A stretch of DNA of 64,000 bases from a virus (lineage: Duplodnaviria; Heunggongvirae; Uroviricota; Caudoviricetes), in the IMG/VR virus record IMGVR_UViG_2851955134_000009; one strand, 5' to 3'. This document shows positions 1,440 to 53,409 of this stretch, in pieces. How positions within the stretch are numbered: the first letter of the stretch is position 1; every line of letters starts with the position of its first letter. The notes beneath the pieces were generated by a model that ran no database searches, had not been told where the DNA came from, and saw nothing but the letters and a program-made list of their open reading frames with translations. The position numbers were made by a program, and so were the translations under genes.

Positions 1440-2468
1440 TCAAAGTACGTATGGTCTAAACCTAATTATTTCTATTTCAAGCCAGTCGTTTAATTGATCA
1501 AATCTTTTCTGCATGGGCACCAATTCATTGCGCATAAATACCTTACTAGCCTTCTCCACATCCCCAAACCCCCCAACATTATTCGGCAAAATTCCCATCA
1601 TCTGAGGCGGTACGCGGTGTGCAGCCATCATGTCGTCCCGGCTCACGTTCTTGATGTTCAGAAATTCATCTTTCGCTGCGACTTCTGACAACGGGATAAT
1701 CTGAAGTCCGTCCTTTTTGCCGTTAGGCGAGTACATAAACAGATTGCGGAAGTTGCCTGGACCTTTGGCGCTTTTCATCGCGTTGCGGAGGTTGTTCACA
1801 TCCTCCTGATTCTGCGCGGCGTCGGTCATGTACATGATGAAGCCTGCATGACTACCGTTGATGTAATACTTACGGCGGAACAGCGTGGCGGATTCGTTGA
1901 GCAGGGCGGATGGAATGGCAGAAAGATAGCCGGGCAGGCCGTAGATCTCCTGGTTGATGTCCGGTTCCATCAGATGAAAAATGCTGCCTTTCGTGAACTG
2001 ATACGGCTGGGTTGTCATACCGTATTGCACAAACCAGTAGGTATCCAGGTCTAACCCGCGTCGGGTGTATTTTGCCAGCGCAGGCTCAAGGGCGATAACT
2101 TCACCGAATCGGTTCGTGCGTTTCTCCAGGTAGGCGTTACCAAATACCAGATAGTCCTGCACAAAACGCGAAAAAGCCTGTTGGCTGAGCAGCGGATGAG
2201 GGATATAGGTACTGGTCAGAATGTTGCACTTTACTGCAATCGGGGAACTGTGATGCACGGCAGCGCGGAAGGTGCGCGCCAGTCCGTCAAAGCTGACGGG
2301 AGGCTCATACCAGCGATCTGTCTGAACACATTCCACATAGTCCAGCAGTTCGCGGCGGTCAAGTACTGGAACGGGATCACCGAAGCTGAATGCTTCGGCT
2401 GAAGTCTGGTTTTTATGCTGGATCTGATTCGTCGCCGCAGCGCGGTTTTTCTTACTCTTTCCCATCAA
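1440..2468 (-). CDS. Q: phage portal protein (P2 gpQ-like)
   Basis: 342 aa, size and position as P2 Q, divergent from the O-N-M operon and adjacent to terminase P. The last ~15 codons are AT-rich. Confidence 0.85.
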   Translation of the reverse strand: MMGKSKKNRAAATNQIQHKNQTSAEAFSFGDPVPVLDRRELLDYVECVQTDRWYEPPVSFDGLARTFRAAVHHSSPIAVKCNILTSTYIPHPLLSQQAFSRFVQDYLVFGNAYLEKRTNRFGEVIALEPALAKYTRRGLDLDTYWFVQYGMTTQPYQFTKGSIFHLMEPDINQEIYGLPGYLSAIPSALLNESATLFRRKYYINGSHAGFIMYMTDAAQNQEDVNNLRNAMKSAKGPGNFRNLFMYSPNGKKDGLQIIPLSEVAAKDEFLNIKNVSRDDMMAAHRVPPQMMGILPNNVGGFGDVEKASKVFMRNELVPMQKRFDQLNDWLEIEIIRFRPYVL

Positions 2469-4231
2469 AAAATCTCCACAATATTGCTGGTATTGGCGGA
2501 CTCGCCCTGCAGCGGTTCGTTAAACAGTGCGTGCATTGTTGCCCAGGCCAGATCGGCGTGGCTGGCTTCTTCGCTGCGGCTGGCTTCATAGGTTGGGCGG
2601 TTGCCACTGGCGGTGGTGGCACGACGGATTGCCATGAATGACTGCGCAATGTCGGTGTGCCCGGCGTCAAACTCCAGACGGCGGTGGCTGATAATGTCGT
2701 AGGCCTTGAGTACCAGGGCATTTTTAACGTTGGGGTTGTAGACAAACTCCCGGACGGCAGGAAAGAACGCTTTCACGTTCTCGTAAACTCCGTGACCGAC
2801 ACCTGTCGAGTCGATACCGATATAGGTCACGTTGTACTGTTCGGTCAGTTTTTTGATGGCGTCAGCCTGGGCGCGGAAGTCCATCCCGCGCCACTGGTGA
2901 CGCTCAAGAATGCGAAACTTACCGCCTGGCACGGCTGGCGGTGCCACCACCACGCATCCGGCGCTGTCGCCGTTCTGCGTACCTTTTGCCGGGTCATAAC
3001 CGATCCACACTTCTCGCCAGCCAAACGGGCGCAGGGCCAGTGCATGAAAGTCGGTCCAGACTTCCCAACTGTCCACCATGCATGCCTGCAGCTCGCTGAG
3101 CGGAAATACGGACGCGAGATCGTCCACGAATTCACACATCAGCAGGTTCTGGTATTCGTCCGGGCTGTATTCCATGCGCAACTGGTCAAGGTCGAACAGG
3201 TTACAGCCGCCGCGCACCGCATCTTCCACGGTGACTATCTGGCGGTATTGCCCGTCTGCACACAGCAGGCCTGGAGCCAGATTGCTGTGGGACAGGTCGA
3301 TGTCCACCTTGTCGGCTTTATTGCGCCCACGGTTGAATAGCGCACCGGACCAGAACGGATAAGCACTGTGTGTCAGGCTGGATGGCGTGGAAAAATAGGT
3401 TTGTCGCCATTTTTTGTGAATAGCCATACCGGAAGCCACTTTGCGCAGCTCCTGGAATTTCGGTATCCAGAAATATTCATCCAGATACAGGTTGCCGTGG
3501 TAACTCTGGGCCGTGCGGGCATTGGTGCCGAGGAAATACAGTGTGGCCCCGTTGGGAAGCACCATCGGATCGCCTTTCAGCTCCACTTCCACTTCTTTGG
3601 CGAAGTCGATGATGTACTGCTTAAAGACGTGGGCCTGTGCCTTGCTGGCGGAAAGGAAAATCTGGTTACGTCCGGTAAGCAGAGCGTCAATCAGGGCTTC
3701 ACGGGCAAAGTAAAAGGTCGCGCCGATCTGGCGTGACTTCAGCAGGTTGCGGATGCGGTTGGTTTTTCCGGCTTCCCACCAGTGGCGCTGGTAGTTGAAC
3801 ATGGAGGAATGGAAAATTTCTTCCAGCTTCTCAATCTGTTCATCGGTGAAAACATTCTTTTCAGGCTGACGGCGTGGGCCTTTGTTGCGGTTGGCGACGT
3901 TAGGGTTTAAGTCGGCTTCGTTGCCGCCATTGTTAAACTTGCCGATCCGCGCGTGGCGCTCCGACTGGCGCGCCAGCAGGTCAATTTCTTTAAAGTCTTT
4001 CCCTTCTTTGTGCTCCTTCATAATGAGCTGGCAGTAGCGTGCGGCGGTAGTGAGCTGCATCTGATCCAGCGGCCCATAGTCACCCCACTTGTCGCGTTTT
4101 TTCCAGCTGTGAACGGTTGCAACTTTCTCGCCCAGCATTTCAGCAATGCGGGCGACGCGGTATCCCTGAAAGTACAGCAGCATGGCCTGCCGACGGGGAT
4201 CGAGATCTGCGGGTGTCAGTGTGGTGTTCAT
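2465..4231 (-). CDS. P: terminase large (ATPase) subunit (P2 gpP-like)
   Basis: 588 aa, overlaps the Q start by 4 nt, P2-type synteny. Confidence 0.85.
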   Translation of the reverse strand: MNTTLTPADLDPRRQAMLLYFQGYRVARIAEMLGEKVATVHSWKKRDKWGDYGPLDQMQLTTAARYCQLIMKEHKEGKDFKEIDLLARQSERHARIGKFNNGGNEADLNPNVANRNKGPRRQPEKNVFTDEQIEKLEEIFHSSMFNYQRHWWEAGKTNRIRNLLKSRQIGATFYFAREALIDALLTGRNQIFLSASKAQAHVFKQYIIDFAKEVEVELKGDPMVLPNGATLYFLGTNARTAQSYHGNLYLDEYFWIPKFQELRKVASGMAIHKKWRQTYFSTPSSLTHSAYPFWSGALFNRGRNKADKVDIDLSHSNLAPGLLCADGQYRQIVTVEDAVRGGCNLFDLDQLRMEYSPDEYQNLLMCEFVDDLASVFPLSELQACMVDSWEVWTDFHALALRPFGWREVWIGYDPAKGTQNGDSAGCVVVAPPAVPGGKFRILERHQWRGMDFRAQADAIKKLTEQYNVTYIGIDSTGVGHGVYENVKAFFPAVREFVYNPNVKNALVLKAYDIISHRRLEFDAGHTDIAQSFMAIRRATTASGNRPTYEASRSEEASHADLAWATMHALFNEPLQGESANTSNIVEIF

Positions 4232-4373
4232 GGCACAAACCTACAGCCTTGAATGACGGCTTTCCCCGCCTGCGGTTTGTGTGGTTGTCGGTACAAATAC
4301 CGCGCATTGTTTCACTGCCCCCATCACCGCAACCATAAGGCTCCAGTAAGTTTTTTCTAACGGAGCACGGCTC

Positions 4374-5207
4374 ATGACAGTGAAAGCAAAGCGTTTTCGC
4401 ATCGGGGTGGAAGGTGCCACCACCGACGGACGCGAAATCCAGCGTGAATGGCTGGAACAGATGGCAGCCAGCTACAACCCGGCGGTGTATACCGCGCTGA
4501 TTAACCTTGAGCACATCAAGTCTTATCTGCCGGACAGCACCTTTAACCGCTACGGCAAGGTGACGGCGCTGTTTGCTGAAGAAATCACGGAAGGCCCGCT
4601 GGCAGGCAAGATGGCGCTGTATGCCGATGTTGAGCCAACGGAGTCCCTGGTGGAACTGGTGAAAAAAGGCCAGAAATTATTCACCTCTATGGAAGTCAGC
4701 CCGAAGTTCGCTGATACGGGCAAAGCCTACCTGGTTGGCCTGGCTGCCACTGATGACCCTGCCAGTCTGGGTACGGAAATGCTGACATTCAGCGCCAGTG
4801 CAGCCCATAACCCGCTGGCAAACCGCAAGCAGAATCCTGCCAATCTTTTTACCGCTGCAGAGGAAACGGTGATCGAACTGGAAGAAATCCAGGAGGACAA
4901 GCCGTCCCTGTTTACCCGTGTCACGGCGCTGTTCACCAAAAAAGAGCAGTCCGACGATGCCCGGTTCTCTGATGTGCATAAGGCCGTGGAACTGGTCGCC
5001 ACTGAGCAGCAAAACCTGAGTGCGCGCACCGAAAAATCCCTGTCTGAACAGCAAGAACGCCTGTCTGAGCTGGAGACAGCCATGCAGGCACAGCTGACCG
5101 CCTTTAACGAACTGGTGGACAAGCTGAGCCATGAAGACAGCCGCCAGGACTACCGCCAGCGTGCAACAGGCGGTAACGCCCACGCTGACACTCTGACCAA
5201 TTGCTGA
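4374..5207 (+). CDS. O: capsid scaffolding protein (P2 gpO-like)
   Basis: 277 aa, first gene of the rightward head operon, followed by the major capsid gene. Confidence 0.8.
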   Translation: MTVKAKRFRIGVEGATTDGREIQREWLEQMAASYNPAVYTALINLEHIKSYLPDSTFNRYGKVTALFAEEITEGPLAGKMALYADVEPTESLVELVKKGQKLFTSMEVSPKFADTGKAYLVGLAATDDPASLGTEMLTFSASAAHNPLANRKQNPANLFTAAEETVIELEEIQEDKPSLFTRVTALFTKKEQSDDARFSDVHKAVELVATEQQNLSARTEKSLSEQQERLSELETAMQAQLTAFNELVDKLSHEDSRQDYRQRATGGNAHADTLTNC

Positions 5208-5223
5208 TGGAGCACAAAACCTG

Positions 5224-6282
5224 ATGAAGAAGAATACCCGCTTTGCTTTTAACGCTTACCTGCAGCAGCTGGCGCGTCTGAACGGTGTGGCAGTTGAAGA
5301 ACTGTCCAGCAAGTTCACCGTGGAGCCGTCCGTGCAGCAGACGCTGGAAGACCAGATCCAGCAGTCCGCCGCTTTCCTGACGCTGATTAATGTCACCCCG
5401 GTGACTGAACAGTCCGGTCAACTGCTGGGGCTGGGTGTTGGTAGTACCATTGCCGGAACCACTGATACCACCGCGAAAGAGCGTGAACCCGTCGATCCGA
5501 CGCTGATGGTCGATGTGGAATACAAATGCGAGCAGACCAACTTTGACACGGTGCTGACCTACGCGAAGCTGGATCTGTGGGCGAAGTTTCAGGATTTCCA
5601 GGTGCGTATCCGTGACGCCATCGTGAAACGTCAGGCACTGGACCGCATCATGATCGGCTTTAACGGCGTGAAGCGTGCGAAAACCTCCAACCGTAGCGAA
5701 AACCCGCTGCTGCAGGATGTGAATAAAGGTTGGCTGCAGAAAATCCGTGAGGATGCACCGGATCACGTCATGGGCAGCACCACCACGGGCGGTGAAACCA
5801 CACCGGGCGCGGTGAAAGTCGGTAAAGGTGGCGAATATGCCAACCTGGACGCCGTGGTGATGGATGCCGTTAATGAGCTTATCGACGTGGTCTACCAGGA
5901 CGATGACGATCTGGTGGTGATTTGCGGTCGTGAACTGTTGTCTGATAAGTATTTCCCGCTGGTCAACAAAGAGCAGGAAAACAGTGAAAAACTGGCTGCC
6001 GATATGATCATCAGCCAGAAACGCATGGGTGGCCTGCAGGCCGTGCGTGCGCCGTTCTTCCCGCCGAATGCGCTGCTGATCACCCGTCTGGATAACCTGT
6101 CCATCTACTGGCAGGAAGACACCCGCCGCCGTTCAGTTATCGACAACCCGAAACGTGATCGGATTGAAAACTTTGAATCCGTTAACGAAGCCTATGTGGT
6201 TGAGGACTACCGCTGCGCCGCACTGGTGGAAAACATCCAGATTGGCGACTTCAGCGCCGCCGCAGCAGAAGCCGGAGCGTAA
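5224..6282 (+). CDS. N: major capsid protein (P2 gpN-like)
   Basis: 352 aa, position and size as P2 N. Confidence 0.85.
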   Translation: MKKNTRFAFNAYLQQLARLNGVAVEELSSKFTVEPSVQQTLEDQIQQSAAFLTLINVTPVTEQSGQLLGLGVGSTIAGTTDTTAKEREPVDPTLMVDVEYKCEQTNFDTVLTYAKLDLWAKFQDFQVRIRDAIVKRQALDRIMIGFNGVKRAKTSNRSENPLLQDVNKGWLQKIREDAPDHVMGSTTTGGETTPGAVKVGKGGEYANLDAVVMDAVNELIDVVYQDDDDLVVICGRELLSDKYFPLVNKEQENSEKLAADMIISQKRMGGLQAVRAPFFPPNALLITRLDNLSIYWQEDTRRRSVIDNPKRDRIENFESVNEAYVVEDYRCAALVENIQIGDFSAAAAEAGA

Positions 6283-6285
6283 CCT

Positions 6286-6936
6286 ATGAACCTGAGTCCC
6301 GCACGGCAGCATCGCCTGCGCGTTCAGGCTGAACAGGCCGCCCGCGAGGGCGGCAGTGTTCGCCACGCGTCGGGCTATGACCTGATGTTGCTGCAACTGG
6401 CGGAAGATCGCCGCCGTCTCAAGGGCGTTCAGTCCACGGTCAAAAAAGCGGAAATCAAAGTGGAGCTGCTGCCGAAGTACGCCGCCTGGGCGGAGGGTGT
6501 CCTGGCTGCCGGAGGCACTCAACAGGATGACGTGCTGATGTACGTGATGCTGTGGCGCATTGATGCCGGAGATTATGCCGGGGCGCTGGAGATCGGGCGT
6601 CATGCCCTGCGTCATGGCTGGGTGATGCCGCTGGGTAACCGCAACGTGCAGACCGTGCTGGCAGAGGAAATGGCAGACGCAGCGCAGAGCGCAATGCTTG
6701 CCGCCACCGGCTTTGATGCCGATCTGTTACTGCAGACACTGGAACTAACAGACGGTCTGGATATGCCGGACCAGTCACGGGCGCGTCTGCATAAAGCGAT
6801 TGGCGCTGTCCTGAGTGAAAGCAATCCGGCTTCCGCCCTTAATCATCTCAACCATGCGTTACAGCTCGATCCCCGCTGTGGCGTGAAAAAAGACAAACAG
6901 CAGCTGGAGCGCAGACTGCGCAATGACAGCCGCTGA
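6286..6936 (+). CDS. M: terminase small/endonuclease subunit (P2 gpM-like)
   Basis: 216 aa, immediately after N as in P2. Confidence 0.7.
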   Translation: MNLSPARQHRLRVQAEQAAREGGSVRHASGYDLMLLQLAEDRRRLKGVQSTVKKAEIKVELLPKYAAWAEGVLAAGGTQQDDVLMYVMLWRIDAGDYAGALEIGRHALRHGWVMPLGNRNVQTVLAEEMADAAQSAMLAATGFDADLLLQTLELTDGLDMPDQSRARLHKAIGAVLSESNPASALNHLNHALQLDPRCGVKKDKQQLERRLRNDSR

Positions 6937-7031
6937 CAGAACGTGCCCCCGCGCACGGGCGGCACGGGGTGGCGAAAGGCACTGCCACATCAAAACCCCG
7001 TCCACCGCCCTTTATTTCAGGAGAAAGCAGC

Positions 7032-7496
7032 ATGAAGTTTGTTGCGCCAGAACAGGCACCGGAACAGGCGGAAATCATCAGAAATACGCCGTTCTGGCCT
7101 GATGTGGACCTGTCGGAGTTTCGCAGTGTCATGCGCACTGACGGTACGGTGACGCCGCCGCGTTTAAAGCAGGTTGCGCTGTCGGCAATTTCGGAGGTCA
7201 ACGCAGAGCTGTATGAGTTTCGCAGACGTCAGCAGATGCTGGGGTATGTGTCGCTGGCTGAGGTTCCGGCGGAACAGTTGGACGGCAAAAGTGAGCGCAT
7301 TCAGCACTATTTCAACGCGGTTTACTGCTGGGCACGCGCCATGCTCAACGAACGATACCAGGACTATGACGCTACGGCATCCGGTGTGAAGCGAGGCGAG
7401 GAACTGGCGGAATCCTGCGGTGATTTGTGGCGTGACGCCCGCTGGGCCATCAGCCGGGTGCAGGATGCGCCGCACTGCACAGTGGAGCTTATCTGA
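7032..7496 (+). CDS. L: head completion/stabilisation protein (P2 gpL-like)
   Basis: Start moved to ATG 7032 (MKFVAPEQ...), which has a GGAG-type RBS upstream; the longer track ORF from 6969 begins inside the M gene. Confidence 0.7.
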   Translation: MKFVAPEQAPEQAEIIRNTPFWPDVDLSEFRSVMRTDGTVTPPRLKQVALSAISEVNAELYEFRRRQQMLGYVSLAEVPAEQLDGKSERIQHYFNAVYCWARAMLNERYQDYDATASGVKRGEELAESCGDLWRDARWAISRVQDAPHCTVELI

Positions 7497-7699
7497 TGAA
7501 AGTGCGTGCGCATCAGTATGACACGGTGGACGCGCTTTGCTGGCGTCATTACGGGCGCACGCAGGGTGTCACGGAGCAGGTACTGAAGGCAAATCCGGGG
7601 CTTGCCGAATATGGCCCCTTTTTACCTCACGGGCTGCAGGTGGAGCTGCCGGACATTCCGACCACCACCACCGTGCAGACCGTCCAGCTATGGGACTGA
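7496..7699 (+). CDS. X: tail protein X (P2 gpX-like)
   Basis: 67 aa, same size as P2 X, start overlaps the L stop. Confidence 0.7.
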   Translation: MKVRAHQYDTVDALCWRHYGRTQGVTEQVLKANPGLAEYGPFLPHGLQVELPDIPTTTTVQTVQLWD

Positions 7700-7702
7700 A
7701 TT

Positions 7703-7918
7703 ATGACGCTTGAGCGAATCAGCGCCTTTATCACGTATTGCATCGCCGTTGTGCTGGCCTGGCTGGGGGATTTGTCCATCAAGGATGCTTCAACGCTGGG
7801 CGGCCTGATGATCGGTGTGCTGATGCTGGCTATCAACTGGTACTACAAACACAAAGCCTACCAGCTTCTGCGCGACGGGCAGATCTCGCGGGAGGACTAT
7901 GAATCCATCAATCGTTAA
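7703..7918 (+). CDS. putative holin
   Basis: 71-aa protein with two hydrophobic segments, directly upstream of the endolysin. Confidence 0.5.
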   Translation: MTLERISAFITYCIAVVLAWLGDLSIKDASTLGGLMIGVLMLAINWYYKHKAYQLLRDGQISREDYESINR

Positions 7919-8414
7919 ACGCTGCCTTGTCGGGGCTGTGCTGGCTATTGCTGCCACGCTGCCGGGTTTTCAGCAGCTTCACACCTCCGTGGAGGGACTG
8001 AAACTGATCGCCGATTACGAAGGCTGTCGTCTGCAGCCGTATCAGTGCAGCGCGGGTGTCTGGACCGACGGCATTGGTAATACATCGGGCGTCATTCCCG
8101 GCAAAACAATCACGGAACGACAGGCAGCAGAAGGGCTGATCTCCAACGTGCTGCGTGTGGAGCGGGCGCTGGAAAGGTGTGTGAAGCAACAGCCACCGCA
8201 GAAGGTGTATGACGCTACGGTGTCGTTTGCCTTCAACGTGGGGACGGGCAATGCCTGTAGTTCCACGCTGGTGAAATTGCTCAATCAGCGGCGCTGGGCG
8301 GATGCGTGCCGACAGTTGCCGCGCTGGGTGTATGTAAAAGGTGTGTTTAATCAGGGGCTAGATAACCGCCGAGCGCGGGAGATGGCCTGGTGCCTTAAAG
8401 GAGCTGGACTATGA
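7899..8414 (+). CDS. endolysin, lysozyme-like with N-terminal signal-anchor (SAR-type)
   Basis: 171 aa; hydrophobic N-terminus (LVGAVLAIAATL) followed by a lysozyme-like domain; sits inside the lysis cassette. Confidence 0.7.
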   Translation: MNPSIVKRCLVGAVLAIAATLPGFQQLHTSVEGLKLIADYEGCRLQPYQCSAGVWTDGIGNTSGVIPGKTITERQAAEGLISNVLRVERALERCVKQQPPQKVYDATVSFAFNVGTGNACSSTLVKLLNQRRWADACRQLPRWVYVKGVFNQGLDNRRAREMAWCLKGAGL

Positions 8415-8839
8415 TACGTGCGCTGGCGGTAGTGGCGGCGCTGGCACTCGTTGCGCTGGGCTGGCAGTCGTGGCGGCTTAACAGCGCCAGCCATACCATC
8501 GAAACGCAGCGCGCGGCGCTGAAAAGTAAAGCGCACGAACTAACGAAGAAAAATAGCCAGCTGATCAGTCTGTCCATTCTGGCTGAAACCAACAACCGGG
8601 AGCAGGCGCGGCTCTACGCCGAAGCAGAACAGACCAGCGCACAGCTGAGACAACGACAACGCCGGATCGAGGAACTGAAACGTGAGAACGAGGATTTACG
8701 CCACTGGGCTGATACTCCTTTGCCTGCTGACATTATCCGGCTGCGGGAACGTCCGGCACTCACCGGAGGTGCAGCTTACCGTCAGTGGTTGTCCGCGAGT
8801 GACGCCGTGTCGGCTGGAGCAGGCAGCACCGCGCACTAA
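8411..8839 (+). CDS. lysB: i-spanin (Rz/LysB-like)
   Basis: N-terminal TM segment and coiled-coil-rich periplasmic part; a lipoprotein ORF is embedded in the +1 frame. Confidence 0.65.
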   Translation: MIRALAVVAALALVALGWQSWRLNSASHTIETQRAALKSKAHELTKKNSQLISLSILAETNNREQARLYAEAEQTSAQLRQRQRRIEELKRENEDLRHWADTPLPADIIRLRERPALTGGAAYRQWLSASDAVSAGAGSTAH

Positions 8840-8918
8840 CGGTGATCTGAATGCGTTGCTGGATGAAACGGAGGCCGCCTGGGCGGTCTGTGCAGACAAA
8901 GTGGACATGATTATTTGA
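8682..8918 (+). CDS. lysC: o-spanin (Rz1/LysC-like), 3' end truncated by the Mu-like insertion
   Basis: Lipoprotein-like N-terminus (LLTLSGCG). The ORF stops at the TGA supplied by the first three bases of the inserted element. Joining the flanks restores 18 more codons (96 aa total) that overlap the R start. Confidence 0.65.
   Translation: MRTRIYATGLILLCLLTLSGCGNVRHSPEVQLTVSGCPRVTPCRLEQAAPRTNGDLNALLDETEAAWAVCADKVDMII
8910..8915. repeat. ATTATT direct repeat, left copy (putative target-site duplication)
   Basis: Identical hexamer directly abuts both termini of the Mu-like element (8910-8915 and 46511-46516). Confidence 0.6.
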
Positions 8919-8993: not shown

Positions 8994-9566
8994 TTACATT
9001 TCAGGTTCCGTTATGACAGTCCCAACAGGGTGATAGCGGTAGATCGTTGACAGTCCAATATCATAGATAATTGCCAGCCGCTTTCTGTCATACCCTTTCT
9101 GGAGCAATCTTGCGATCTGCTCATGCTGCTCCTTCGTCAGTTTCGGGCGACGTCCTCCAACTCTCCCTTGTGCTCGCGCAGCAGCCAGTCCTGCCAGCGT
9201 GCGCTCAACTATCAGTTCACGCTCCATTTCTGCCAGTGCACCCATCATATGAAAAAAGAACCTTCCCATCGGAGTGCTGGTATCGATTGAATCCGTCAGA
9301 CTGCGAAAATTGACACCTTTTGCGCGTAGCTCTTCTGTGAGAGCAATGAGGTGTTTCATTCTTCTACCCAACCGATCCAGCTTCCAGACCACCAATGTAT
9401 CCCCTCTTTTAAGGCACTTTAAAGCGCGTTTCAGGCCTGGTCGTTCCGACTTGGTTCCGCTCATTTTGTCCTCAAAAATCTGTTCACATCCTGCGCACAT
9501 TAATGCATTGCGTTGCAAATCTGTGTTTTGGTCATTTGTTGACACACGTATGTAGCCAATCAGCAT
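8994..9566 (-). CDS. serine DNA invertase (Gin/Pin/Hin family)
   Basis: 190 aa from MLIGYIRVSTNDQ...; catalytic-serine N-terminal domain and C-terminal HTH typical of invertases. Start placed at the internal Met because the longer track ORF overlaps the fibre segment. Confidence 0.85.
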   Translation of the reverse strand: MLIGYIRVSTNDQNTDLQRNALMCAGCEQIFEDKMSGTKSERPGLKRALKCLKRGDTLVVWKLDRLGRRMKHLIALTEELRAKGVNFRSLTDSIDTSTPMGRFFFHMMGALAEMERELIVERTLAGLAAARAQGRVGGRRPKLTKEQHEQIARLLQKGYDRKRLAIIYDIGLSTIYRYHPVGTVITEPEM

Positions 9567-26735: not shown

Positions 26736-26949
26736 TTTGCTGTCCCGCGTTATGTTGTCGGAGACAGTTTGTGAGAAATGCGGGCCCGGCGATTTTAATC
26801 TGCTTTAGAAAACATCAGGGGAGAAGGACAGGGAAAGCAATGTGGTGAACCGGAGGCAGTTATAAAACAGAGGCTGTAAAGCCTTTATAAAGGTAATACA
26901 GCCCCTCATTCGCTGGCAATGATAAATCACCCGCCTGAAGAGAGAAAAC

Positions 26950-33784: not shown

Positions 33785-34135
33785 TTAAAGCCCCATCGCA
33801 ACAGCCAGACAGACAGCTGCAACAATCAGTGCACGACGAAGCAGGGCGGCAGCAAACACCAGATGAAGCCCGGTCTGTACGGGCCAGCGCCCCTCAGCCA
33901 TGAGGCGCTCGTCATGCTTCAGGTACTGCCCCGGGCGGGCCTTCGGGAAGAGCGAGCGGTCCAGCCAGTAGCCGAGAACGGAGGCGAGGGAGATGAGAGA
34001 GAGCTTGTACACCACCACCGGCAGCTGCTGGGGCGAGACCAGCGCGATGATGAGGAGCAGCAGTACGGCGGCAACAAGCCAGCCACGCAGGCGGGTTTTT
34101 TGTACGTCTGCGATAAGGGAGGTGAGTTTTTTCAT
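33785..34135 (-). CDS. putative holin/membrane protein
   Basis: 116 aa with two to three TM segments; first gene of the leftward late operon. Confidence 0.45.
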   Translation of the reverse strand: MKKLTSLIADVQKTRLRGWLVAAVLLLLIIALVSPQQLPVVVYKLSLISLASVLGYWLDRSLFPKARPGQYLKHDERLMAEGRWPVQTGLHLVFAAALLRRALIVAAVCLAVAMGL

Positions 34136-34267
34136 AAAGATGTCTCCTTGTGTAGTGGAGACAGCATCACAAATACGGGGCGCGAAGGATTTTAAAGCGC
34201 GTTAAGAGAGCCGGGGATACGGGATGCGCAGAATAAACGATGAATTATTCACAGAGGAGAATACGAT

Positions 34268-35011
34268 ATGACGCACACACTGAATCCGGTCATCACTGTC
34301 ACTGTGTCCGGTCCTGTGGGCAGCGGTAAAAGTTACGTACTGGCGCGGATAGAAGAGATGGTGAAACAGGAACTCGGAAACAGCGTCATTGTCGATGCTG
34401 CTGACGTGGAGAATGAGCGCCGTATGAGTGGCGATGATCTGACGACCTGGCAGAAGCCACGGGCTGGCACAGTGATCAGGCTGGAGGAATACACGGGACA
34501 GGGCCTGTTGTCATACGGCGAGGAGCGTATCTGTCGGACGAATGAGCTGCTGGATGTTATATGCCCCGCGGGCCGGCAACCCTGGATACTGCCCGATGCA
34601 CTGCATGCCACCATTGCGGCACTGATGACAGTTTACGATCAGGAACTGCTCATGAAGGAGTTACGTAAACTCACCGGTCAGCCAACAGAATGTTTTTCGG
34701 CCCCGAAGTACGGGAAGCAGGAACACATCCCGGTGAACACAATCCCCGTTAACCAGCCTCCCCGGTTCTTCGACGAATACATTCTGACACCGGAAAATAA
34801 AGCTGAGCATGAAGAGATCAAAGAGGCGTTGTTCCGGGAAATCAGGAAGATTGCTGAAATGCAACTGGGGGGCGGGCTGGACAGAGTGATGGCGAGAGGA
34901 GAATGGGAGTCGCTGTTTGAAAGAGTTTCCCCGGAATTACTGCCCCTCGCACTGGCTATCGGGATTATGCAGACAGCAGATAAACCTCACTTACGTTCAT
35001 CAAACACGTAG
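34268..35011 (+). CDS. P-loop NTPase/kinase-like protein of unknown function
   Basis: Walker A motif GPVGSGKS near the N-terminus, followed by VIVDAAD; no further recognisable domain. Confidence 0.4.
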   Translation: MTHTLNPVITVTVSGPVGSGKSYVLARIEEMVKQELGNSVIVDAADVENERRMSGDDLTTWQKPRAGTVIRLEEYTGQGLLSYGEERICRTNELLDVICPAGRQPWILPDALHATIAALMTVYDQELLMKELRKLTGQPTECFSAPKYGKQEHIPVNTIPVNQPPRFFDEYILTPENKAEHEEIKEALFREIRKIAEMQLGGGLDRVMARGEWESLFERVSPELLPLALAIGIMQTADKPHLRSSNT

Positions 35012-35064
35012 CGCAGAATATTTTGCCGGTGAGTACATAAAAATCATCATTTAAGGAGTGCATC

Positions 35065-35280
35065 ATGAATCCCCGATTAACGTTAACAGAACATCAGCGC
35101 CGTGCTGAAGCAGTGAACAATGTTCTGGAAGATATTATCCGGTTACATCGCGGAGAACTGAGTGTCTGTCGTGCCGCTTTTCATTTTCAGGGAATACAAA
35201 AGCAGTTTGATACTTCTGTTTTTGCAGAAGGTATTACTTATGCCCTGGACCGGATAAGGTCAGAAAATCGCCCCGGATAA
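35065..35280 (+). CDS. hypothetical small protein
   Basis: 71-aa ORF with an RBS-like AAGGAG upstream, between the P-loop gene and the methyltransferase. Confidence 0.3.
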   Translation: MNPRLTLTEHQRRAEAVNNVLEDIIRLHRGELSVCRAAFHFQGIQKQFDTSVFAEGITYALDRIRSENRPG

Positions 35281-35471
35281 TCCCTAAACCACATTAACAG
35301 AAATCCCACTATCCCTGCCGCATCATGAAAGAACGACCAGCCCGGTGCTTCGGACCCACCGGGCTGGCCATCGTCCCACAGAAGTGGCTGTGAGCCGACC
35401 GAGGTTCAGTCAGTCTCGCGAGACCAGACTAGCCTGCCATATTTTTAATAATTGTAAAAGGCTTACAGATT

Positions 35472-36236
35472 ATGAAAATGCAGACATTACCCATCGTTCC
35501 ATGGATTGGTGGCAAACGCCGCCTTGCAAAACACATTCTGCCGCTGTTTCCGGCGCATGAATGTTATGTGGAGCCGTTTTGTGGGGCAGCAGCGCTCTAT
35601 TTTCTTAAGACACCCGGCAAGATCGAAGTCATCAATGATATCAACGGTGAACTGGTGAATCTGTACCGGGTGGTAAAGCATCACCTGGAAGAATTTGTCC
35701 GCCAGTTCAAATGGGCGCTGGTCAGCCGTCAGATCTACAAATGGCTGCAGATCACCCCGGAAGAAACACTGACGGATATCCAGCGTGCGGCACGGTTCTA
35801 CTACCTTCAGAAGCAGGCGTTTGGCGGCAAGGTGGCAGAGCACAGCTTCGGTACCTCCACCACATCCCCGCCACGCTTCAACCTGCTGCGTATTGAAGAA
35901 GAACTGTCAGCGGCACACCTGCGGCTTTCCAGAACAGTCATAGAACACATGGACTGGCAACAGTGCATTGAGCGTTATGATCGTCCGCACACGCTGTTCT
36001 ACTGCGACCCACCGTACCTGGGTACGGAAGGCTATGGTGTGGATTTTCCTGAAGGGAACTACTCGCGGCTGGCAGAGCTGGCCCGGTGCATCAGAGGAAA
36101 AATGATAATTTCGGTGAACGACATCCCGCAGATGCGCGAGGTGTTCACTGGACTGAACATACAGACAGTGAATATCAACTACAGTCTGGCGGGTAAATCC
36201 ACGCCGCGCCGTGAACTGCTAATCTGCAACTTCTGA
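35472..36236 (+). CDS. DNA N6-adenine methyltransferase (Dam/D12 class)
   Basis: AdoMet-binding motif EPFCGAAALYF near the N-terminus and catalytic DPPY motif; 254 aa. Confidence 0.8.
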   Translation: MKMQTLPIVPWIGGKRRLAKHILPLFPAHECYVEPFCGAAALYFLKTPGKIEVINDINGELVNLYRVVKHHLEEFVRQFKWALVSRQIYKWLQITPEETLTDIQRAARFYYLQKQAFGGKVAEHSFGTSTTSPPRFNLLRIEEELSAAHLRLSRTVIEHMDWQQCIERYDRPHTLFYCDPPYLGTEGYGVDFPEGNYSRLAELARCIRGKMIISVNDIPQMREVFTGLNIQTVNINYSLAGKSTPRRELLICNF

Positions 36237-36247
36237 AACAAAACCGG

Positions 36248-36270
36248 AAAGCACAATGCTTTCCGGTAAA
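36248..36270. terminator. hairpin downstream of the methyltransferase gene
   Basis: ccggaaagc/gctttccgg inverted repeat, located between convergent genes. Confidence 0.35.
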
Positions 36271-36352
36271 CCAAACAACTTCCACTATGTCACTGGCGAT
36301 GTTTTCTGAAATCATCCAGATCAACCACCTGTCTTTTGTGTCCGGGTCAGTA

Positions 36353-36700
36353 TCAGCCTGCGATTTTTCCTGGTTTTGGCTGAGTATAGAAGCGCCCAAC
36401 CTCAAGAAATGAGCGTCGTTGCTCCGGAGTCATTTCATCAAATGCGTCCATTAATTTCTGTTTGTCTGGTGACATTTTTGGGATAGCGTTGGTAGTTGCA
36501 TCCCCTCTCTGTCCCGTAACAACGTAAAGCACGTCAAGCCCCAAAGTAGCCCAAATTGCCAAAGCATCTGCTCCGGGAGCGGATTCATCCTTTTCCCACC
36601 GCAATTGGCTTTTATAGGATGCCCCCACCAATTCAGCAAACTCAGACTGACTAAATCCTAGGCGGTTTCGTTCTTCTTTTAATCGTGAACCAAGTGACAT
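36353..36700 (-). CDS. HTH (XRE-type) repressor, Mu c-like position
   Basis: N-terminal HTH (LKEERNRLGFSQSEFAELVG); divergently transcribed from the Ner-like gene. Confidence 0.6.
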   Translation of the reverse strand: MSLGSRLKEERNRLGFSQSEFAELVGASYKSQLRWEKDESAPGADALAIWATLGLDVLYVVTGQRGDATTNAIPKMSPDKQKLMDAFDEMTPEQRRSFLEVGRFYTQPKPGKIAG

Positions 36701-36793
36701 TTTTGTCCCAATATCTATTTACATATCCCATTATTGGGATAATAATCTAACAAATATAAAGCAAACATCATTGCACTAAACAAGGAGACAACA
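36701..36793. promoter_or_regulatory. divergent early control region with operator-like inverted repeat
   Basis: Intergenic region between repressor and Ner-like genes; contains atccca-ttat-tgggat (36725-36740) plus a related half-site upstream. Confidence 0.3.
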
Positions 36794-36982
36794 ATGACTG
36801 CAGACCAGGTCAAAGCTCATTTCCGTCGCAATGGGATCACTTTTACCCAGTGGGCAAAACAGAACAACTACACCAGAGCGGAGGTTTACCGCGTACTGAA
36901 TGGCCAGGTAAAAGCGAACTACGGCAAAGCCCATGAAATCGCTGTCAAGCTGGGATTAAAAACCATCACTGACGCCGCTTAA
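36794..36982 (+). CDS. Ner-like DNA-binding protein
   Basis: 62 aa; the segment GKAHEIAVKLGL resembles the Ner/Nlp family; first gene of the rightward early operon. Confidence 0.6.
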   Translation: MTADQVKAHFRRNGITFTQWAKQNNYTRAEVYRVLNGQVKANYGKAHEIAVKLGLKTITDAA

Positions 36983-37035
36983 AAAGATACAGCATACGAA
37001 AAAGATTATCACATATTGAAAAAAGAGGTGTGCAG

Positions 37036-37344
37036 ATGAGTAAGACGAATGTTTCAAGCTCCGGCAGTCGCATCCTCCGGGTACTAAAAGCGCTGCGTGG
37101 TCATGCTCTGAACGGTATTTCCAACGGTGAACTGGCAGCAGCACTGCACGAGTCACCGGCGAACATCAACCGGGCACTCAACACCCTCATTGAAGAAGGG
37201 CTGGCTCTGAAACTGGAGAACGGACGTTTCGCACCGGGCATTCAGTTGCTGCAGATCGCCATGGCCCACAGTAACGAGATGGCACGTGCACAGGATCGTA
37301 TTAACGAAATTAACCAACGTGTTATTTCAGGAAGTCGTTTGTAA
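37036..37344 (+). CDS. putative winged-helix transcriptional regulator
   Basis: About 100 aa; HTH-like segment (ISNGELAAALHESPANINRALNTLIEEGL). Confidence 0.35.
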   Translation: MSKTNVSSSGSRILRVLKALRGHALNGISNGELAAALHESPANINRALNTLIEEGLALKLENGRFAPGIQLLQIAMAHSNEMARAQDRINEINQRVISGSRL

Positions 37345-46466: not shown

Positions 46467-46510
46467 TATTTATCTCACGGATCCCCCTTCATTTATCTCA
46501 TGTCTGATCA
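46467..46510. repeat. Mu-like element terminal repeat, right-hand copy in window coordinates (putative transposase-binding sites)
   Basis: Reverse complement reads TGATCAGACATGAGATAAATG...GTGAGATAAATAA, matching the end at 8916. Confidence 0.55.
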
Positions 46511-46516
46511 ATTATT
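46511..46516. repeat. ATTATT direct repeat, right copy (putative target-site duplication)
   Basis: Identical to 8910-8915. Confidence 0.6.
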
Positions 46517-52836: not shown

Positions 52837-53409
52837 TTGATCATGCTTATTGGCTATGTACGCGTGTCAACAAATGACCAGAACACCGATTTGCAACGTA
52901 ATGCACTGAACTGCGCGGGATGTGAGCGGATTTTTGAGGACAAAATCAGTGGCACTAAGTCCGACAGACCGGGGCTGAAAAAACTACTCAGGACACTATC
53001 GGCAGGAGACACGCTGGTTGTCTGGAAGCTGGACAGGTTGGGGCGCAGTATGCGGCATCTTGTTACGCTGATAGAAGAGTTGCGCCAGCGTGGTGTGAAT
53101 TTCAGAAGCCTGACTGACAGTATTGATACCAGTACCCCAATGGGCCGTTTCTTTTTTCATGTCATGGGTGCCCTGGCTGAAATGGAACGCGAACTGATAG
53201 TTGAACGTACCAGGGCAGGGCTGGCTGCAGCTCGTGCCAAAGGCAGAGTAGGTGGACGCCGTCCTAAGTTGACCACCGAACAGTGGGCACAGATTGGGCG
53301 TTTACTCGAGGCCGGAGAATCAAGACAGCGTATTGCACTGATTTTTGATGTAGGCGTTTCTACCATTTATAGAAAATTTCCGGCAAATAAGATCAATGAA
53401 TCCCCCTGA
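52837..53409 (+). CDS. serine DNA invertase (Gin/Pin/Hin family)
   Basis: 190 aa, MIMLIGYVRVSTNDQ...; most residues match the Mu-like invertase at 8994-9566 by visual alignment. Confidence 0.85.
   Translation: MIMLIGYVRVSTNDQNTDLQRNALNCAGCERIFEDKISGTKSDRPGLKKLLRTLSAGDTLVVWKLDRLGRSMRHLVTLIEELRQRGVNFRSLTDSIDTSTPMGRFFFHVMGALAEMERELIVERTRAGLAAARAKGRVGGRRPKLTTEQWAQIGRLLEAGESRQRIALIFDVGVSTIYRKFPANKINESP

Follow-up and report, generated by a model that had tools for sequence, protein, structure and literature searches.

The window, a 64,000-nucleotide stretch of DNA, contains a 37.6-kb BcepMu-type transposable prophage (positions 8916-46510) in an E. coli chromosome. The prophage ends are TG...CA, and a 6-bp duplication, ATTATT, was found at 8910-8915 and 46511-46516. 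E. coli AR_0085 showed 100% identity to the prophage, and phage PhiKM, which is classified in Bcepmuvirus, shared 93% nucleotide identity with it. Pfam, PHROG and annotation identified a gene complement of the Bcepmuvirus type: a 2/3-TM holin, an SLT endolysin, Rz, a DDE transposase, an ExeA-like ATPase, Mor and Mu-type head genes. The features of the region between the holin and repressor genes were as follows.

33785-34135, minus strand: holin gene, in the left flank with the SLT endolysin and Rz genes
34136-34267: divergent control region of the holin and P-loop genes, conserved in five diverged relatives
34142-34147 (GTCTCC) and 34157-34162 (GGAGAC): hairpin around the holin Shine-Dalgarno, seen in the sequence
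34193-34208: conserved motif TAAAGCGCGTTAAGAG in the holin/P-loop control region, with a counterpart in front of the dam leader
34268-35011, plus strand: P-loop gene, 247 aa
35012-35064: scar of a ~325-bp deletion between short similar sequences, from alignment
35065-35280, plus strand: 71-aa gene
35285-35300, plus strand: promoter/operator-like motif TAAACCACATTAACAG, the second copy of the holin-side motif, ~30 nt upstream of the leader
35329-35471, plus strand: structured leader RNA of dam, ~145 nt, from fold, covariation and covariance model
35472-36236, plus strand: dam, 254 aa, encoding an orphan D12-class N6-adenine DNA methyltransferase
36243-36267, minus strand: hairpin ACCGGAAAGC-atTgt-GCTTTCCGGT (11 bp), then TTTGTTTC, from sequence and terminator scan
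36353-36700, minus strand: HTH (Cro/CI-type) repressor gene, from Pfam HTH_3, NCBIfam DicA/RstR-like and PHROG repressor families; convergent with dam and outside the cassette

The first-pass annotation had described three co-oriented genes between the leftward late operon and the repressor gene, and all three ORFs were present on the plus strand, from the lysis cassette to the repressor gene, with the flanks as described. It had also placed them at the centre of the element; the region is instead the junction of the late and early arms, not the physical centre of 8916-46510. PHROG matches at E = 1e-162 (phrog_3787, unknown function), 2e-52 (phrog_4490) and 5e-101 showed that the three ORFs are real genes rather than chance ORFs, and the region occurred in 636 of 5426 complete E. 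coli genomes. Beyond the repressor gene, the right flank holds a plus-strand operon (ner-like/IclR-HTH/DUF3102/DDE transposase/ExeA).

The Walker A sequence GPVGSGKS reported for the 247-aa protein was confirmed at residues 15-22. Across the wider family (53 matches among 1.84 billion representative proteins), only residues 1-76 were conserved. These form an N-terminal mini P-loop domain of 75 aa (codons 1-76, 34268-34495), and the C-terminal part is lineage-specific. Walker A residues G20 and K21 were invariant, three members had GKN instead of GKS/T, and the putative Walker B aspartate (VIVDAAD) was not invariant. With only ~75 residues conserved, a complete P-loop NTPase core with Walker B was not found. 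No Pfam or NCBIfam model reached its cutoff (best AAA_30, 16.9 bits vs 27), and there was no structural match in the PDB, where profile matches of the domain spanned only beta1-Walker A-alpha1. The minimal P-loop prototypes 6C2U ("phosphate-loop protein") and 9JIX (de novo ATPase) aligned to the N-domain profile over that element (E = 2e-5 and 1e-3) and are of comparable size (75-115 aa), but both are engineered proteins, and the match of just ~35-45 residues reflects the Walker A motif. In BFVD, the P-loop model matched a stand-alone, unnamed 82-aa phage protein. Structure prediction, which had been proposed for this protein, succeeded in part: AlphaFold2 with a 25-sequence alignment was confident for residues ~10-70 and not for the remainder, and with a single sequence the pLDDT was 45. 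The protein did not prove to be a recognised replication or packaging factor, a possibility that the first-pass annotation had raised. More speculatively, this Walker A domain of 75 aa may represent a naturally occurring minimal P-loop protein, able to bind nucleotides or nucleic acid only once oligomeric.

The 71-aa ORF was confirmed between the P-loop gene and dam. It had no Pfam match, and all 14 homologue clusters with a source name were from E. coli, so that the protein is known only from E. coli BcepMu-type prophages. Word-based homologue searches with the P-loop and 71-aa proteins likewise returned E. coli sequences only. Against PADLOC-DB 2.0 neither had a significant match (best P-loop hit E = 0.01, over the Walker A stretch at residues 13-56; none for the 71-aa protein). 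The 71-aa protein was considered as a Com protein and rejected: having just one cysteine, it is not a Com zinc finger; it shows no zinc-finger pattern; and it is absent from most dam loci. No CxxC...CxxC ORF, as expected of a Com gene, was found in 35012-35471. At the site of the deletion scar, most E. coli relatives carry a 134-aa minus-strand ORF (phrog_2266, E = 1e-43), of which the window retains the first ~18 codons.

The methylase matched PF02086 (E = 5.9e-29) over nearly its full length (102 bits vs a cutoff of 22; its residues 11-234 covered positions 1-248 of the 253-position profile). Motif IV is DPPY at residues 179-182, motif I is F36-C-G-A-A, in which the last glycine of FxGxG is alanine, and both motifs were invariant in five diverged relatives. 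The earlier description of a Dam-class methyltransferase with DPPY thus stood for the D12 family and the motif. It did not stand for Dam in the strict sense: the Dam equivalog model NF008152 gave 67.8 bits vs a cutoff of 441. The broader subfamily model TIGR00571 was barely passed (117.4 bits vs 114.85), generic MTase_II models of PADLOC matched at E = 8e-113, and the nearest solved structures, DpnM and E. coli Dam, gave just E = 1e-17 to 1e-14. Species-representative genomes yielded 484 relatives; the best 80 of the 484 had 66-88% identity, and among these 80 the clade was tightly conserved across Gamma- and Betaproteobacteria. Relatives also occurred in 153 phage records, including PhiKM, KP12, phiE125, phi1026b, KS9, VP882 and B3. 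ORF48 of the Mu-like Pseudomonas phage B3 had 64% identity to the window's Dam and belongs to the same clade.

The GATC-specific enzymes E. coli Dam, T4 Dam and DpnM have the Pfam family, motif order and DPPY in common with the window's Dam, but the phage enzyme falls far short of the Dam equivalog model, and its recognition residues are replaced relative to E. coli Dam. In an alignment to 2G1P, K9, L122, R124 and P134 of E. coli Dam corresponded to P10, K120, A122 and S132 of the phage enzyme, and N120 to glycine. We take these five positions to be the GATC-reading residues of the 2G1P structure; because they are not conserved, GATC is in doubt as the target of the phage Dam. The target-recognition hairpin has the length of that of E. 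coli Dam and keeps both glycines and the Arg137 equivalent. Current labels, "DNA adenine methylase" or "methyl-directed repair" Dam, therefore sit on an enzyme without the GATC-reading residues, and the specificity of this enzyme bears on which restriction systems are defeated.

The 71-aa gene and dam are separated by 190 nt, which contain a conserved structured RNA and are not an empty spacer. The elements of the leader, all on the plus strand, were as follows.

35335-35369: P1 hairpin, from the predicted fold
35377-35392: P2 hairpin (CACAG/CUGUG), from the predicted fold
35388-35396: segment a, CUGUGAGCC, the 3' half of P2, which pairs with segment d
35402-35435: P3, from the predicted fold
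35442-35458: P4, from the predicted fold
35460-35468: segment d, GGCUUACAG, which holds the Shine-Dalgarno GG and pairs with segment a

Segments a and d form a predicted 9-bp helix that covers the dam Shine-Dalgarno GG up to -4, and this helix and P2 are mutually exclusive. The fold had a z-score of -3.47, the covariance model matched with 124 bits, and many unpaired nucleotides of the leader were conserved. No match at E <= 1 was obtained when 4227 Rfam families were searched over 33900-37100 on both strands.

Pairing was evaluated in two alignments. In a plain MAFFT alignment of 46 leaders, 85.4% of cells paired, vs 31-43% when partners were slid, and 145 cells showed double changes, vs 57 in shuffles, with 0 of 500 shuffles reaching 145. 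Over both this alignment and a second one of 48 more diverse leaders, 85-86% of cells were paired (22-43% in slid controls) and 118-145 two-sided compensatory cells were counted (37-57 in shuffles; 0 of 500 equalled the observed value). Two-sided changes were found in 11 of 13 P1 pairs and 3 of 5 P2 pairs of the second alignment, in which P2 was 96.7% paired. The a:d helix was 92.8-97.3% paired in the two alignments, with a slid control of 20-41% for the 48-leader alignment; its one-sided changes were nearly all wobble-compatible, and two of its pairs changed on both sides. A three-way covariation, (A,U,A) to (G,C,G), occurred in six distinct leader sequences and backs both of the exclusive helices. 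Because the strands are highly conserved, two-sided covariation of P2 and a:d comes from few lineages (6-8 sequences). RNAalifold, given the raw MAFFT alignment, did not recover P3 and P4 and suggested a c:d pairing. On the strength of the covariation, we regard the predicted RNA structure of the leader and its alternative helices as well supported by sequence comparison. Since the two folds exclude each other, the leader could turn dam translation on and off, and we infer from the modelled helices that it is a translational switch able to hide the dam ribosome-binding site.

With an HMM and the covariance model, the leader was located directly upstream of dam in Enterobacterales and Betaproteobacteria. 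Phages VP882, KS9 and phiE125 had it in the same position; in B3 it preceded com-dam. The leader was present in ~75 of 80 loci examined in species-representative genomes, and the isolated phages PhiKM, KP12, phiE125, KS9, VP882 and B3 also carried it. The leader sequence pattern was also run on IMG/VR contigs without reference to dam. It matched 63 contigs, 62 of which had a dam homologue 6-42 nt after the leader; the exception lay inside a capsid gene. Orientation and distance to the start codon were constant in the viral contigs. Many betaproteobacterial relatives have a Com-like CxxC...CPRC ORF between leader and dam, and in loci with a Com gene the leader precedes com, to which it shows no homology. 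Occurrence of the leader was restricted to a single clade of phage dam or com-dam operons. Judged by its conservation, the conserved unit of this locus is the leader RNA plus dam cassette, 35329-36236.

Eight aligned sequences of the motif upstream of the leader had the invariant columns T-A-A-A...C.TTAA.AG. The dam and P-loop genes each own one copy of this motif, which is a candidate promoter or activator site. A late-promoter pattern, AAATC-N5-13-CCGYAT, occurred 5 times vs 0.57 expected; it was rejected, having been derived post hoc from three of these five sites, and the sequence before the KP12 leader lacks it. The three genes had been said to end in a hairpin. A hairpin does follow dam, but its U-tract is on the minus strand and it scored as a terminator of the repressor transcript. 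Its plus-strand tail, TAAACCAAAC, has no U-tract, making it a poor terminator in the dam direction and not an intrinsic terminator of the dam transcript. The 36243-36267 hairpin therefore likely terminates the repressor transcript, and it may stop transcription in both directions where dam and the repressor gene converge.

The first-pass annotation had treated the three genes as one module. A comparison of 142 dam loci, 87 of which have a BcepMu-type holin divergently upstream, did not uphold this: the P-loop N-domain gene was present in just 12 of the 87, and ~50 of the 87 had a holin-dam distance of 245-297 nt with no intervening gene. Among the 63 leader-bearing viral contigs, 10 had the P-loop gene and 8 the 71-aa gene, and the Klebsiella relative KP12 kept dam and lacked both. 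Since most dam loci are without the P-loop gene, its product is a neighbour of Dam and not a demonstrated partner; a Walker A motif and adjacency are insufficient to make a functional partner. From this distribution, the P-loop and 71-aa genes are lineage-specific cargo, dispensable to the dam cassette.

The contrary reading, that the three genes are one modification or anti-restriction cassette in which the P-loop protein would serve the methylase as an ATP-dependent partner (a loader, a specificity factor or a regulator), with the small protein as adaptor, draws on their co-orientation and tight spacing and on two diverged BcepMu-type prophages in which a P-loop N-domain gene again lies immediately upstream of dam. 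It is very unlikely given the locus counts above. In addition, phiE125, KS9, VP882 and B3, like KP12, carry the Dam clade and lack the P-loop gene; phage contigs with distant members of the P-loop family had no dam in the vicinity, and one member is followed by a minus-strand gene and not by dam; the conserved upstream motif and leader belong to dam itself; and conservation of the P-loop protein does not extend to its C-terminal half in loci where Dam is 79-85% identical. A more plausible, still tentative, account of the cargo is that the P-loop and 71-aa genes, with the 134-aa gene in relatives, are a self-acting moron, with expression separate from the function of Dam, serving superinfection exclusion or defence, anti-defence, or as a toxin-antitoxin-like pair. 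This account covers the cargo only and is compatible with the explanation that we prefer. The slot between conserved blocks is variable, with contents that differ among relatives, and the window itself has lost a gene there; the N-domain is conserved and the C-terminus exchanged, as in proteins under diversifying selection; and the Walker A region is weakly similar to the Zeta toxin and KAP NTPase families. Against it, PADLOC gave no meaningful score, the P-loop protein has neither a Pfam family at threshold nor a fold match, and a 75-aa domain, with GKN in some members, is too short for a complete P-loop NTPase.

We consider the best explanation, with a probability of about 0.6, to be that this accessory region of a BcepMu-type prophage combines a leader and dam, acting as a mom-equivalent switch cassette, with unrelated lineage-specific cargo. 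The dam mRNA would start with the ~145-nt folded leader, which would adopt either P2 or the a:d helix that closes off the dam Shine-Dalgarno. On this proposal, dam would be silent in the lysogen; Dam would be made in lytic growth under tight translational control and would methylate the DNA of progeny phage so that it withstands restriction in the next host. Candidate triggers of the switch are a phage protein, a metabolite (SAM or SAH) and co-transcriptional folding. Com is not an obvious ligand, since the leader is upstream of com in Com-bearing relatives. Should GATC simply be the target of Dam, a Dam+ E. coli host would make protection redundant. In most relatives the cassette is directly beside the lysis promoter region, and other phage lineages have the order leader-com-dam; this lysis-side position and arrangement suggest that the cassette is the mom-equivalent of the phage family. 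Late timing of dam expression is likewise suggested by position and analogy. The cargo genes would have been inserted between the lysis promoter and the dam cassette, and our guess is that they are accessory genes of the moron type, regulated together with dam.

A different role for the enzyme, expression in the lysogen to control the prophage switch or host genes epigenetically and not to protect virion DNA, would fit the position of dam, which adjoins and converges on the repressor gene, and the single GATC at 36319 in the dam-repressor spacer; orphan methylases are known regulators. However, the operator region, the leader and the holin/P-loop control region all lack GATC, and Dam/OxyR-type control, which we considered, gained no support from this distribution; GATC may moreover not be the target. 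Phages phiE125 and KS9 have the cassette among late/lysis genes, VP882 has it among tail genes and B3 has it in a com operon, and a leader that occludes the Shine-Dalgarno argues for default silence. Most prophage methylases are silent in lysogens according to E. coli methylomes, which concern enzymes other than the phage Dam clade (PMC6602927). We judge this role quite unlikely. Least probable, to the point of being nearly negligible, is that the stretch conserved in front of dam once encoded a com-like protein and has decayed, or that it acts as DNA, for instance as an operator or recombination site. A com ORF does precede dam in relatives, one frame is open in 30 of 59 distinct leaders, and the P2 and a:d strands are almost invariant; but in Com-bearing loci the leader stands separately upstream of com, and a coding region was ruled out by lengths spread over all residues mod 3 (differences are not multiples of 3) and by stops in all three frames in 27 of the 59. 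P1 and P3 vary in sequence and keep their pairing, a signature of a single-stranded fold and not of a protein or duplex site, and the leader's orientation and distance to the start codon are always constant.

The preferred reading, a leader-dam switch cassette, has a close parallel in Mu com-mom. Both have the DNA-modification gene of a transposable phage with a translation start that can be buried in mRNA structure, here by a predicted inhibitory helix over the Shine-Dalgarno region, as in Mu. The two differ in that Mu Mom is an acyltransferase-fold enzyme and the window's enzyme a Rossmann-fold methyltransferase; Mu has com and this prophage does not; and Com binds at the com-mom junction, whereas here the conserved leader precedes the first gene of the operon, com or dam. 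In phage B3, the Dam-clade ORF48 follows the gene for the Com translational regulator (a zinc finger), and because the clade lies behind a Com gene there and in many relatives, it holds the regulatory setting of Mu mom. Phage-borne orphan methylases are common, and to our knowledge silencing in the lysogen and lytic switch-on are known in detail only for Mu mom.

Mu-like prophages swap mom for adenine methyltransferases that protect DNA from restriction; Hia5 and its relatives protect DNA from many restriction enzymes, are non-specific and are very distant from canonical Dam (PMC3299994). Hin1523, Hia5, Nma1821 and B3 ORF48 are, like the window's Dam, DPPY Dam-family enzymes of Mu-like phages. 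As ORF48 is not among the 1000 proteins most similar to Hia5 (PMC3299994), the clade of ORF48 and the window's Dam differs from the Hia5 clade. The analogy to mom that had been suggested for the three genes thus holds for Dam, through its place behind Com in B3 and relatives and the published replacement of mom by methyltransferases, and not for a three-gene unit. By this analogy Mu mom plausibly has its functional counterpart in the methylase, a widespread phage gene that is probably of the anti-restriction type with a protective role.

Translational riboswitches and protein-bound mRNA operators likewise have a structured 5' region with two exclusive helices, one of which sequesters the ribosome-binding site; unlike those known RNAs, the dam leader is outside Rfam and confined to phage dam/com-dam operons of one clade. 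It is a doubtful but conceivable extension that the leader is a new class of ligand-responsive RNA in temperate phages of Gamma- and Betaproteobacteria, either a riboswitch, for which SAM or SAH would be obvious candidates given a methyltransferase gene, or the operator of a phage or host protein. If so, the P1/P2 region with its invariant unpaired nucleotides would be the sensor and the exchange between P2 and a:d the expression platform, and the RNA would tie the capacity for DNA modification to the metabolism or developmental stage of the infected cell. What is new is an uncatalogued, covarying leader with two exclusive folds in front of a widespread phage Dam clade. The leader is a candidate new RNA family and a testable regulatory element, and it may offer a handle on the signal that licenses phage DNA modification.

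The window is E. coli chromosome. Between 33700 and 36800 it matches strain AR_0085 at 100% identity, and of 5426 complete E. coli genomes, 636 contain this stretch. PhiKM, classified as a Bcepmuvirus, shows 93% identity across the same 3.1 kb. The stretch lies in a BcepMu-type transposable prophage of 37.6 kb (8916-46510), whose ends read 5'-TG...CA-3' with inverted GATAAATG repeats and are flanked on both sides by a 6-bp target duplication, ATTATT. Its genes encode a Mu-type head, P2-type tail, 2/3-TM holin, SLT endolysin, Rz, DDE transposase, ExeA-like ATPase, Gam and Mor. The late arm is read leftward, with the holin gene as its last, and the early arm rightward; the interval between them holds the three plus-strand ORFs of the first-pass annotation and a leftward repressor gene.

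Features of the late/early interval are listed by window coordinates.
33785-34135, minus strand: holin gene, last of the late arm
34193-34208: motif TAAA-N4-YRTTAA-N-AG, copy 1, beside the holin and P-loop genes
34268-35011, plus strand: P-loop gene (247 aa)
35065-35280, plus strand: 71-aa gene
35285-35300: motif TAAA-N4-YRTTAA-N-AG, copy 2, beside the dam leader
35329-35471, plus strand: leader RNA with helices P1-P4, directly 5' of dam
35388-35396, plus strand: segment beginning in the 3' half of P2
35460-35468, plus strand: segment covering the Shine-Dalgarno region of dam
35472-36236, plus strand: dam, methyltransferase gene (254 aa)
36243-36267: hairpin 3' of dam
36794, plus strand: start of the early arm

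Both motifs reported earlier were found (residues 15-22 of the 247-aa protein read GPVGSGKS, and residues 179-182 of the 254-aa protein read DPPY) and all three ORFs matched PHROG families with very strong scores; together with the occurrence in 636 genomes, this confirms the observation. The hairpin that had been described as ending the three genes also exists, but its U-tract is on the minus strand; the most fitting reading is a terminator of the repressor transcript, not of dam.

The BcepMu-type prophage sits inside a P2-like prophage, at the extreme 3' end of lysC (8910-8918 and 46505-46516). P2 head and lysis genes (1440-8918) flank it on the left, P2 tail genes (from ~46536) on the right. 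The insertion thus splits the P2-like prophage and has probably left it defective. Beside its portal gene, in the P2 defence hotspot, is a partial gene of low GC content (1-1374; 0.33-0.42) that matches LmuB (PADLOC E = 2.6e-25), the SMC-like ATPase of the Lamassu defence system; such a hotspot is known in P2. Each prophage also carries one serine-recombinase (invertase) gene (8994-9566 and ~52843-53409) adjoining oppositely oriented tail-fibre and tail-fibre-assembly genes, and both sites are likely host-range inversion switches.

The 254-aa protein is a full-length D12-class N6-adenine methyltransferase (PF02086, E = 5.9e-29). Its clade is strikingly conserved: identity to relatives is 79-85% in diverged enterobacterial prophages, where the adjacent genes are far more diverged, and 66-88% among the best 80 of 484 matches in species-representative genomes, many of them Betaproteobacteria. 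Isolated phages of unrelated types carry relatives at 64-66% identity: phiE125 gp27, phi1026b gp26, KS9 gp25, VP882, Curvibacter TJ1 and B3 ORF48. The protein is unlikely to be simply a duplicate of host Dam. It scored 67.8 bits against the E. coli Dam equivalog model, for which the cutoff is 441. Alignment to the E. coli Dam structure showed that the base-reading hairpin retains its length and glycines, and that K9, L122, R124 and P134, which we take to be the GATC-contacting residues of E. coli Dam, are replaced by P, K, A and S, respectively. These replacements suggest that the specificity is probably other than GATC.

The proposal that the methylase is an analogue of mom was supported. In the Mu-like Pseudomonas phage B3, a gene for the translational regulator Com is followed by ORF48 of the dam clade, and Com-like zinc-finger ORFs lie 5' of dam in many betaproteobacterial loci. 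Mu-like prophages without mom carry adenine methyltransferases instead, which shield DNA against restriction (PMC3299994).

The three genes had been read as one module, which the comparison of loci does not bear out. Relatives were collected for the methylase (the best 80 of 484 matches in species-representative genomes) and for the leader (63 matches in IMG/VR). A BcepMu-type holin gene lies divergently upstream in 87 of 142 dam loci; about 50 of those 87 have a distance of just 245-297 nt between the start codons of holin and dam, which leaves room for the control region and leader alone. The gene for the P-loop N-domain stands between holin and dam in only 12 of the 87; among the 63 viral contigs with the leader, 10 have the P-loop gene and 8 the 71-aa gene. 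The content of the slot is also variable. Most of the 636 E. coli relatives carry an extra 134-aa ORF on the minus strand (phrog_2266), which the window lost by a ~325-bp deletion at 35012-35064, between short similar sequences. A Klebsiella relative has an unrelated DUF2441 gene on the minus strand, and BcepMu itself has different hypothetical genes. Given this variability and the low co-occurrence with dam, the P-loop and 71-aa genes are, by locus comparison, cargo, inserted after the lysis control region and ahead of dam. Where the 134-aa gene is present, its start codon overlaps that of the 71-aa gene, back to back.

The motif TAAA-N4-YRTTAA-N-AG is kept 5' of the dam leader in all relatives; those without cargo have a single copy, between holin and leader. 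The two copies in the window suggest that similar promoters may drive cargo and dam, and the motif may be a late-promoter element dependent on Mor. A sequence that resembles it and contains TTAAAATC is found 5' of the head genes (~26780-26800, minus strand). The holin Shine-Dalgarno AAGGAG falls within a hairpin, GTCTCC...GGAGAC (34142-34162, minus strand), that is kept in diverged BcepMu-type prophages and may control holin translation.

Among 1.84 billion representative proteins, searched exhaustively with HMMER, the P-loop protein has 53 relatives. The shared part is confined to residues 1-76, the C-termini being entirely different, and three members have GKN in place of GKS/T. Close relatives always occupy the slot beside a BcepMu-type holin; distant ones are on other phage contigs with no dam nearby. 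Matches of the N-domain profile were limited to the beta1-Walker A-alpha1 unit of ABC and other NTPases and to engineered minimal "phosphate-loop" proteins. An AlphaFold2 structure prediction was confident for the N-domain but not for the remainder; the model had no structural match in the PDB and resembled a stand-alone 82-aa phage protein (BFVD). No Pfam, NCBIfam or PADLOC model reached threshold. The family, profile and structure comparisons thus gave no recognisable complete NTPase or known replication, packaging or defence protein, and the N-domain is described from its sequence as a mini P-loop-like domain. The 71-aa protein occurs in E. coli prophages only, and its homology searches returned no informative match. 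Neither the locus nor the homology comparisons gave evidence that either protein works with Dam; our best guess, at low confidence, is a moron-type accessory function.

The 71-aa gene and dam are separated by 190 nt, which fold unusually well (z = -3.47), and an Rfam search of the leader region returned nothing at E <= 1. The last ~145 nt are conserved 5' of dam, also at loci with a different or oppositely oriented upstream gene. An HMM found the leader in 55 loci, including the window and its near-identical E. coli copies, and a search with a covariance model recovered it from 78 of 91 sources, phages VP882, KS9 and phiE125 among them. A pattern built from leader sequence only matched 63 viral contigs, of which 62 have the start of a dam homologue 6-42 nt downstream; the remaining match lies inside a capsid gene and is attributed to chance. 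The leader is not a decayed coding region, since its lengths spread over all residues modulo 3 and in 27 of the 59 distinct sequences no frame is free of stops. Two enterobacterial loci have a second, partial copy of the leader 5' half (L022:1321-1461 and L024:2288-2407), ~1 kb upstream of the complete leader.

The four-helix model (P1-P4) was scored on 46 distinct sequences in a plain MAFFT alignment. It paired 85.4% of cells, versus 31-43% with partners slid by 1-3 columns, and compensatory two-sided changes numbered 145 cells versus 57 ± 6 in shuffled alignments (0 of 500 shuffles as high). A second alignment of 48 more diverse sequences showed two-sided changes in 11 of 13 pairs of P1 and 3 of 5 pairs of P2. 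The 3' strand of P2, CUGUG, doubles as the start of a 9-nt segment, CUGUGAGCC, complementary to GGCUUACAG, which starts with the Shine-Dalgarno GG and reaches to position -4 relative to the start codon. The long-range helix so formed was 92.8-97.3% paired versus 20-41% in slid controls; nearly all one-sided changes were wobble-compatible and two pairs were altered on both sides. One position showed three-way covariation: in six distinct sequences (A, U, A) is replaced by (G, C, G). Pairing and covariation argue that P2 and the long-range helix are both under selection, though unable to coexist, and two mutually exclusive helices have the architecture of a translational switch. Across the alignments, leader and dam form a conserved cassette with a covarying fold, one helix of which is predicted to occlude the ribosome-binding site.

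The cassette adjoins late or lysis genes in several phage lineages. We infer that dam would be transcribed from its own promoter along with the late genes and translated solely when the leader takes the P2 form; Dam would then methylate progeny DNA, guarding it against restriction, and would stay silent in the lysogen, to which unchecked adenine methylation might be harmful. Com is not the obvious ligand, because in Com-bearing loci, including B3, the leader precedes com and not dam. The switch may be triggered by a metabolite (SAM or SAH, for example), by some other protein or by the kinetics of folding. The Com ORFs (in B3, with leader L100:2213-2348, and in loci L071, L079, L062, L069 and L070) are about 60-65 aa, mostly contain CxxC...CPRC, and overlap or abut dam. 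With the leader 5' of com, such phages may have two stacked layers of translational control.

Taken as first described, the region is largely unremarkable: it consists of a phage orphan methylase and two hypothetical neighbours, within an E. coli prophage that is common. What raises its interest is the leader, a widespread candidate RNA switch without an Rfam entry, which precedes a mom-like phage methylase with a specificity that is probably other than GATC.
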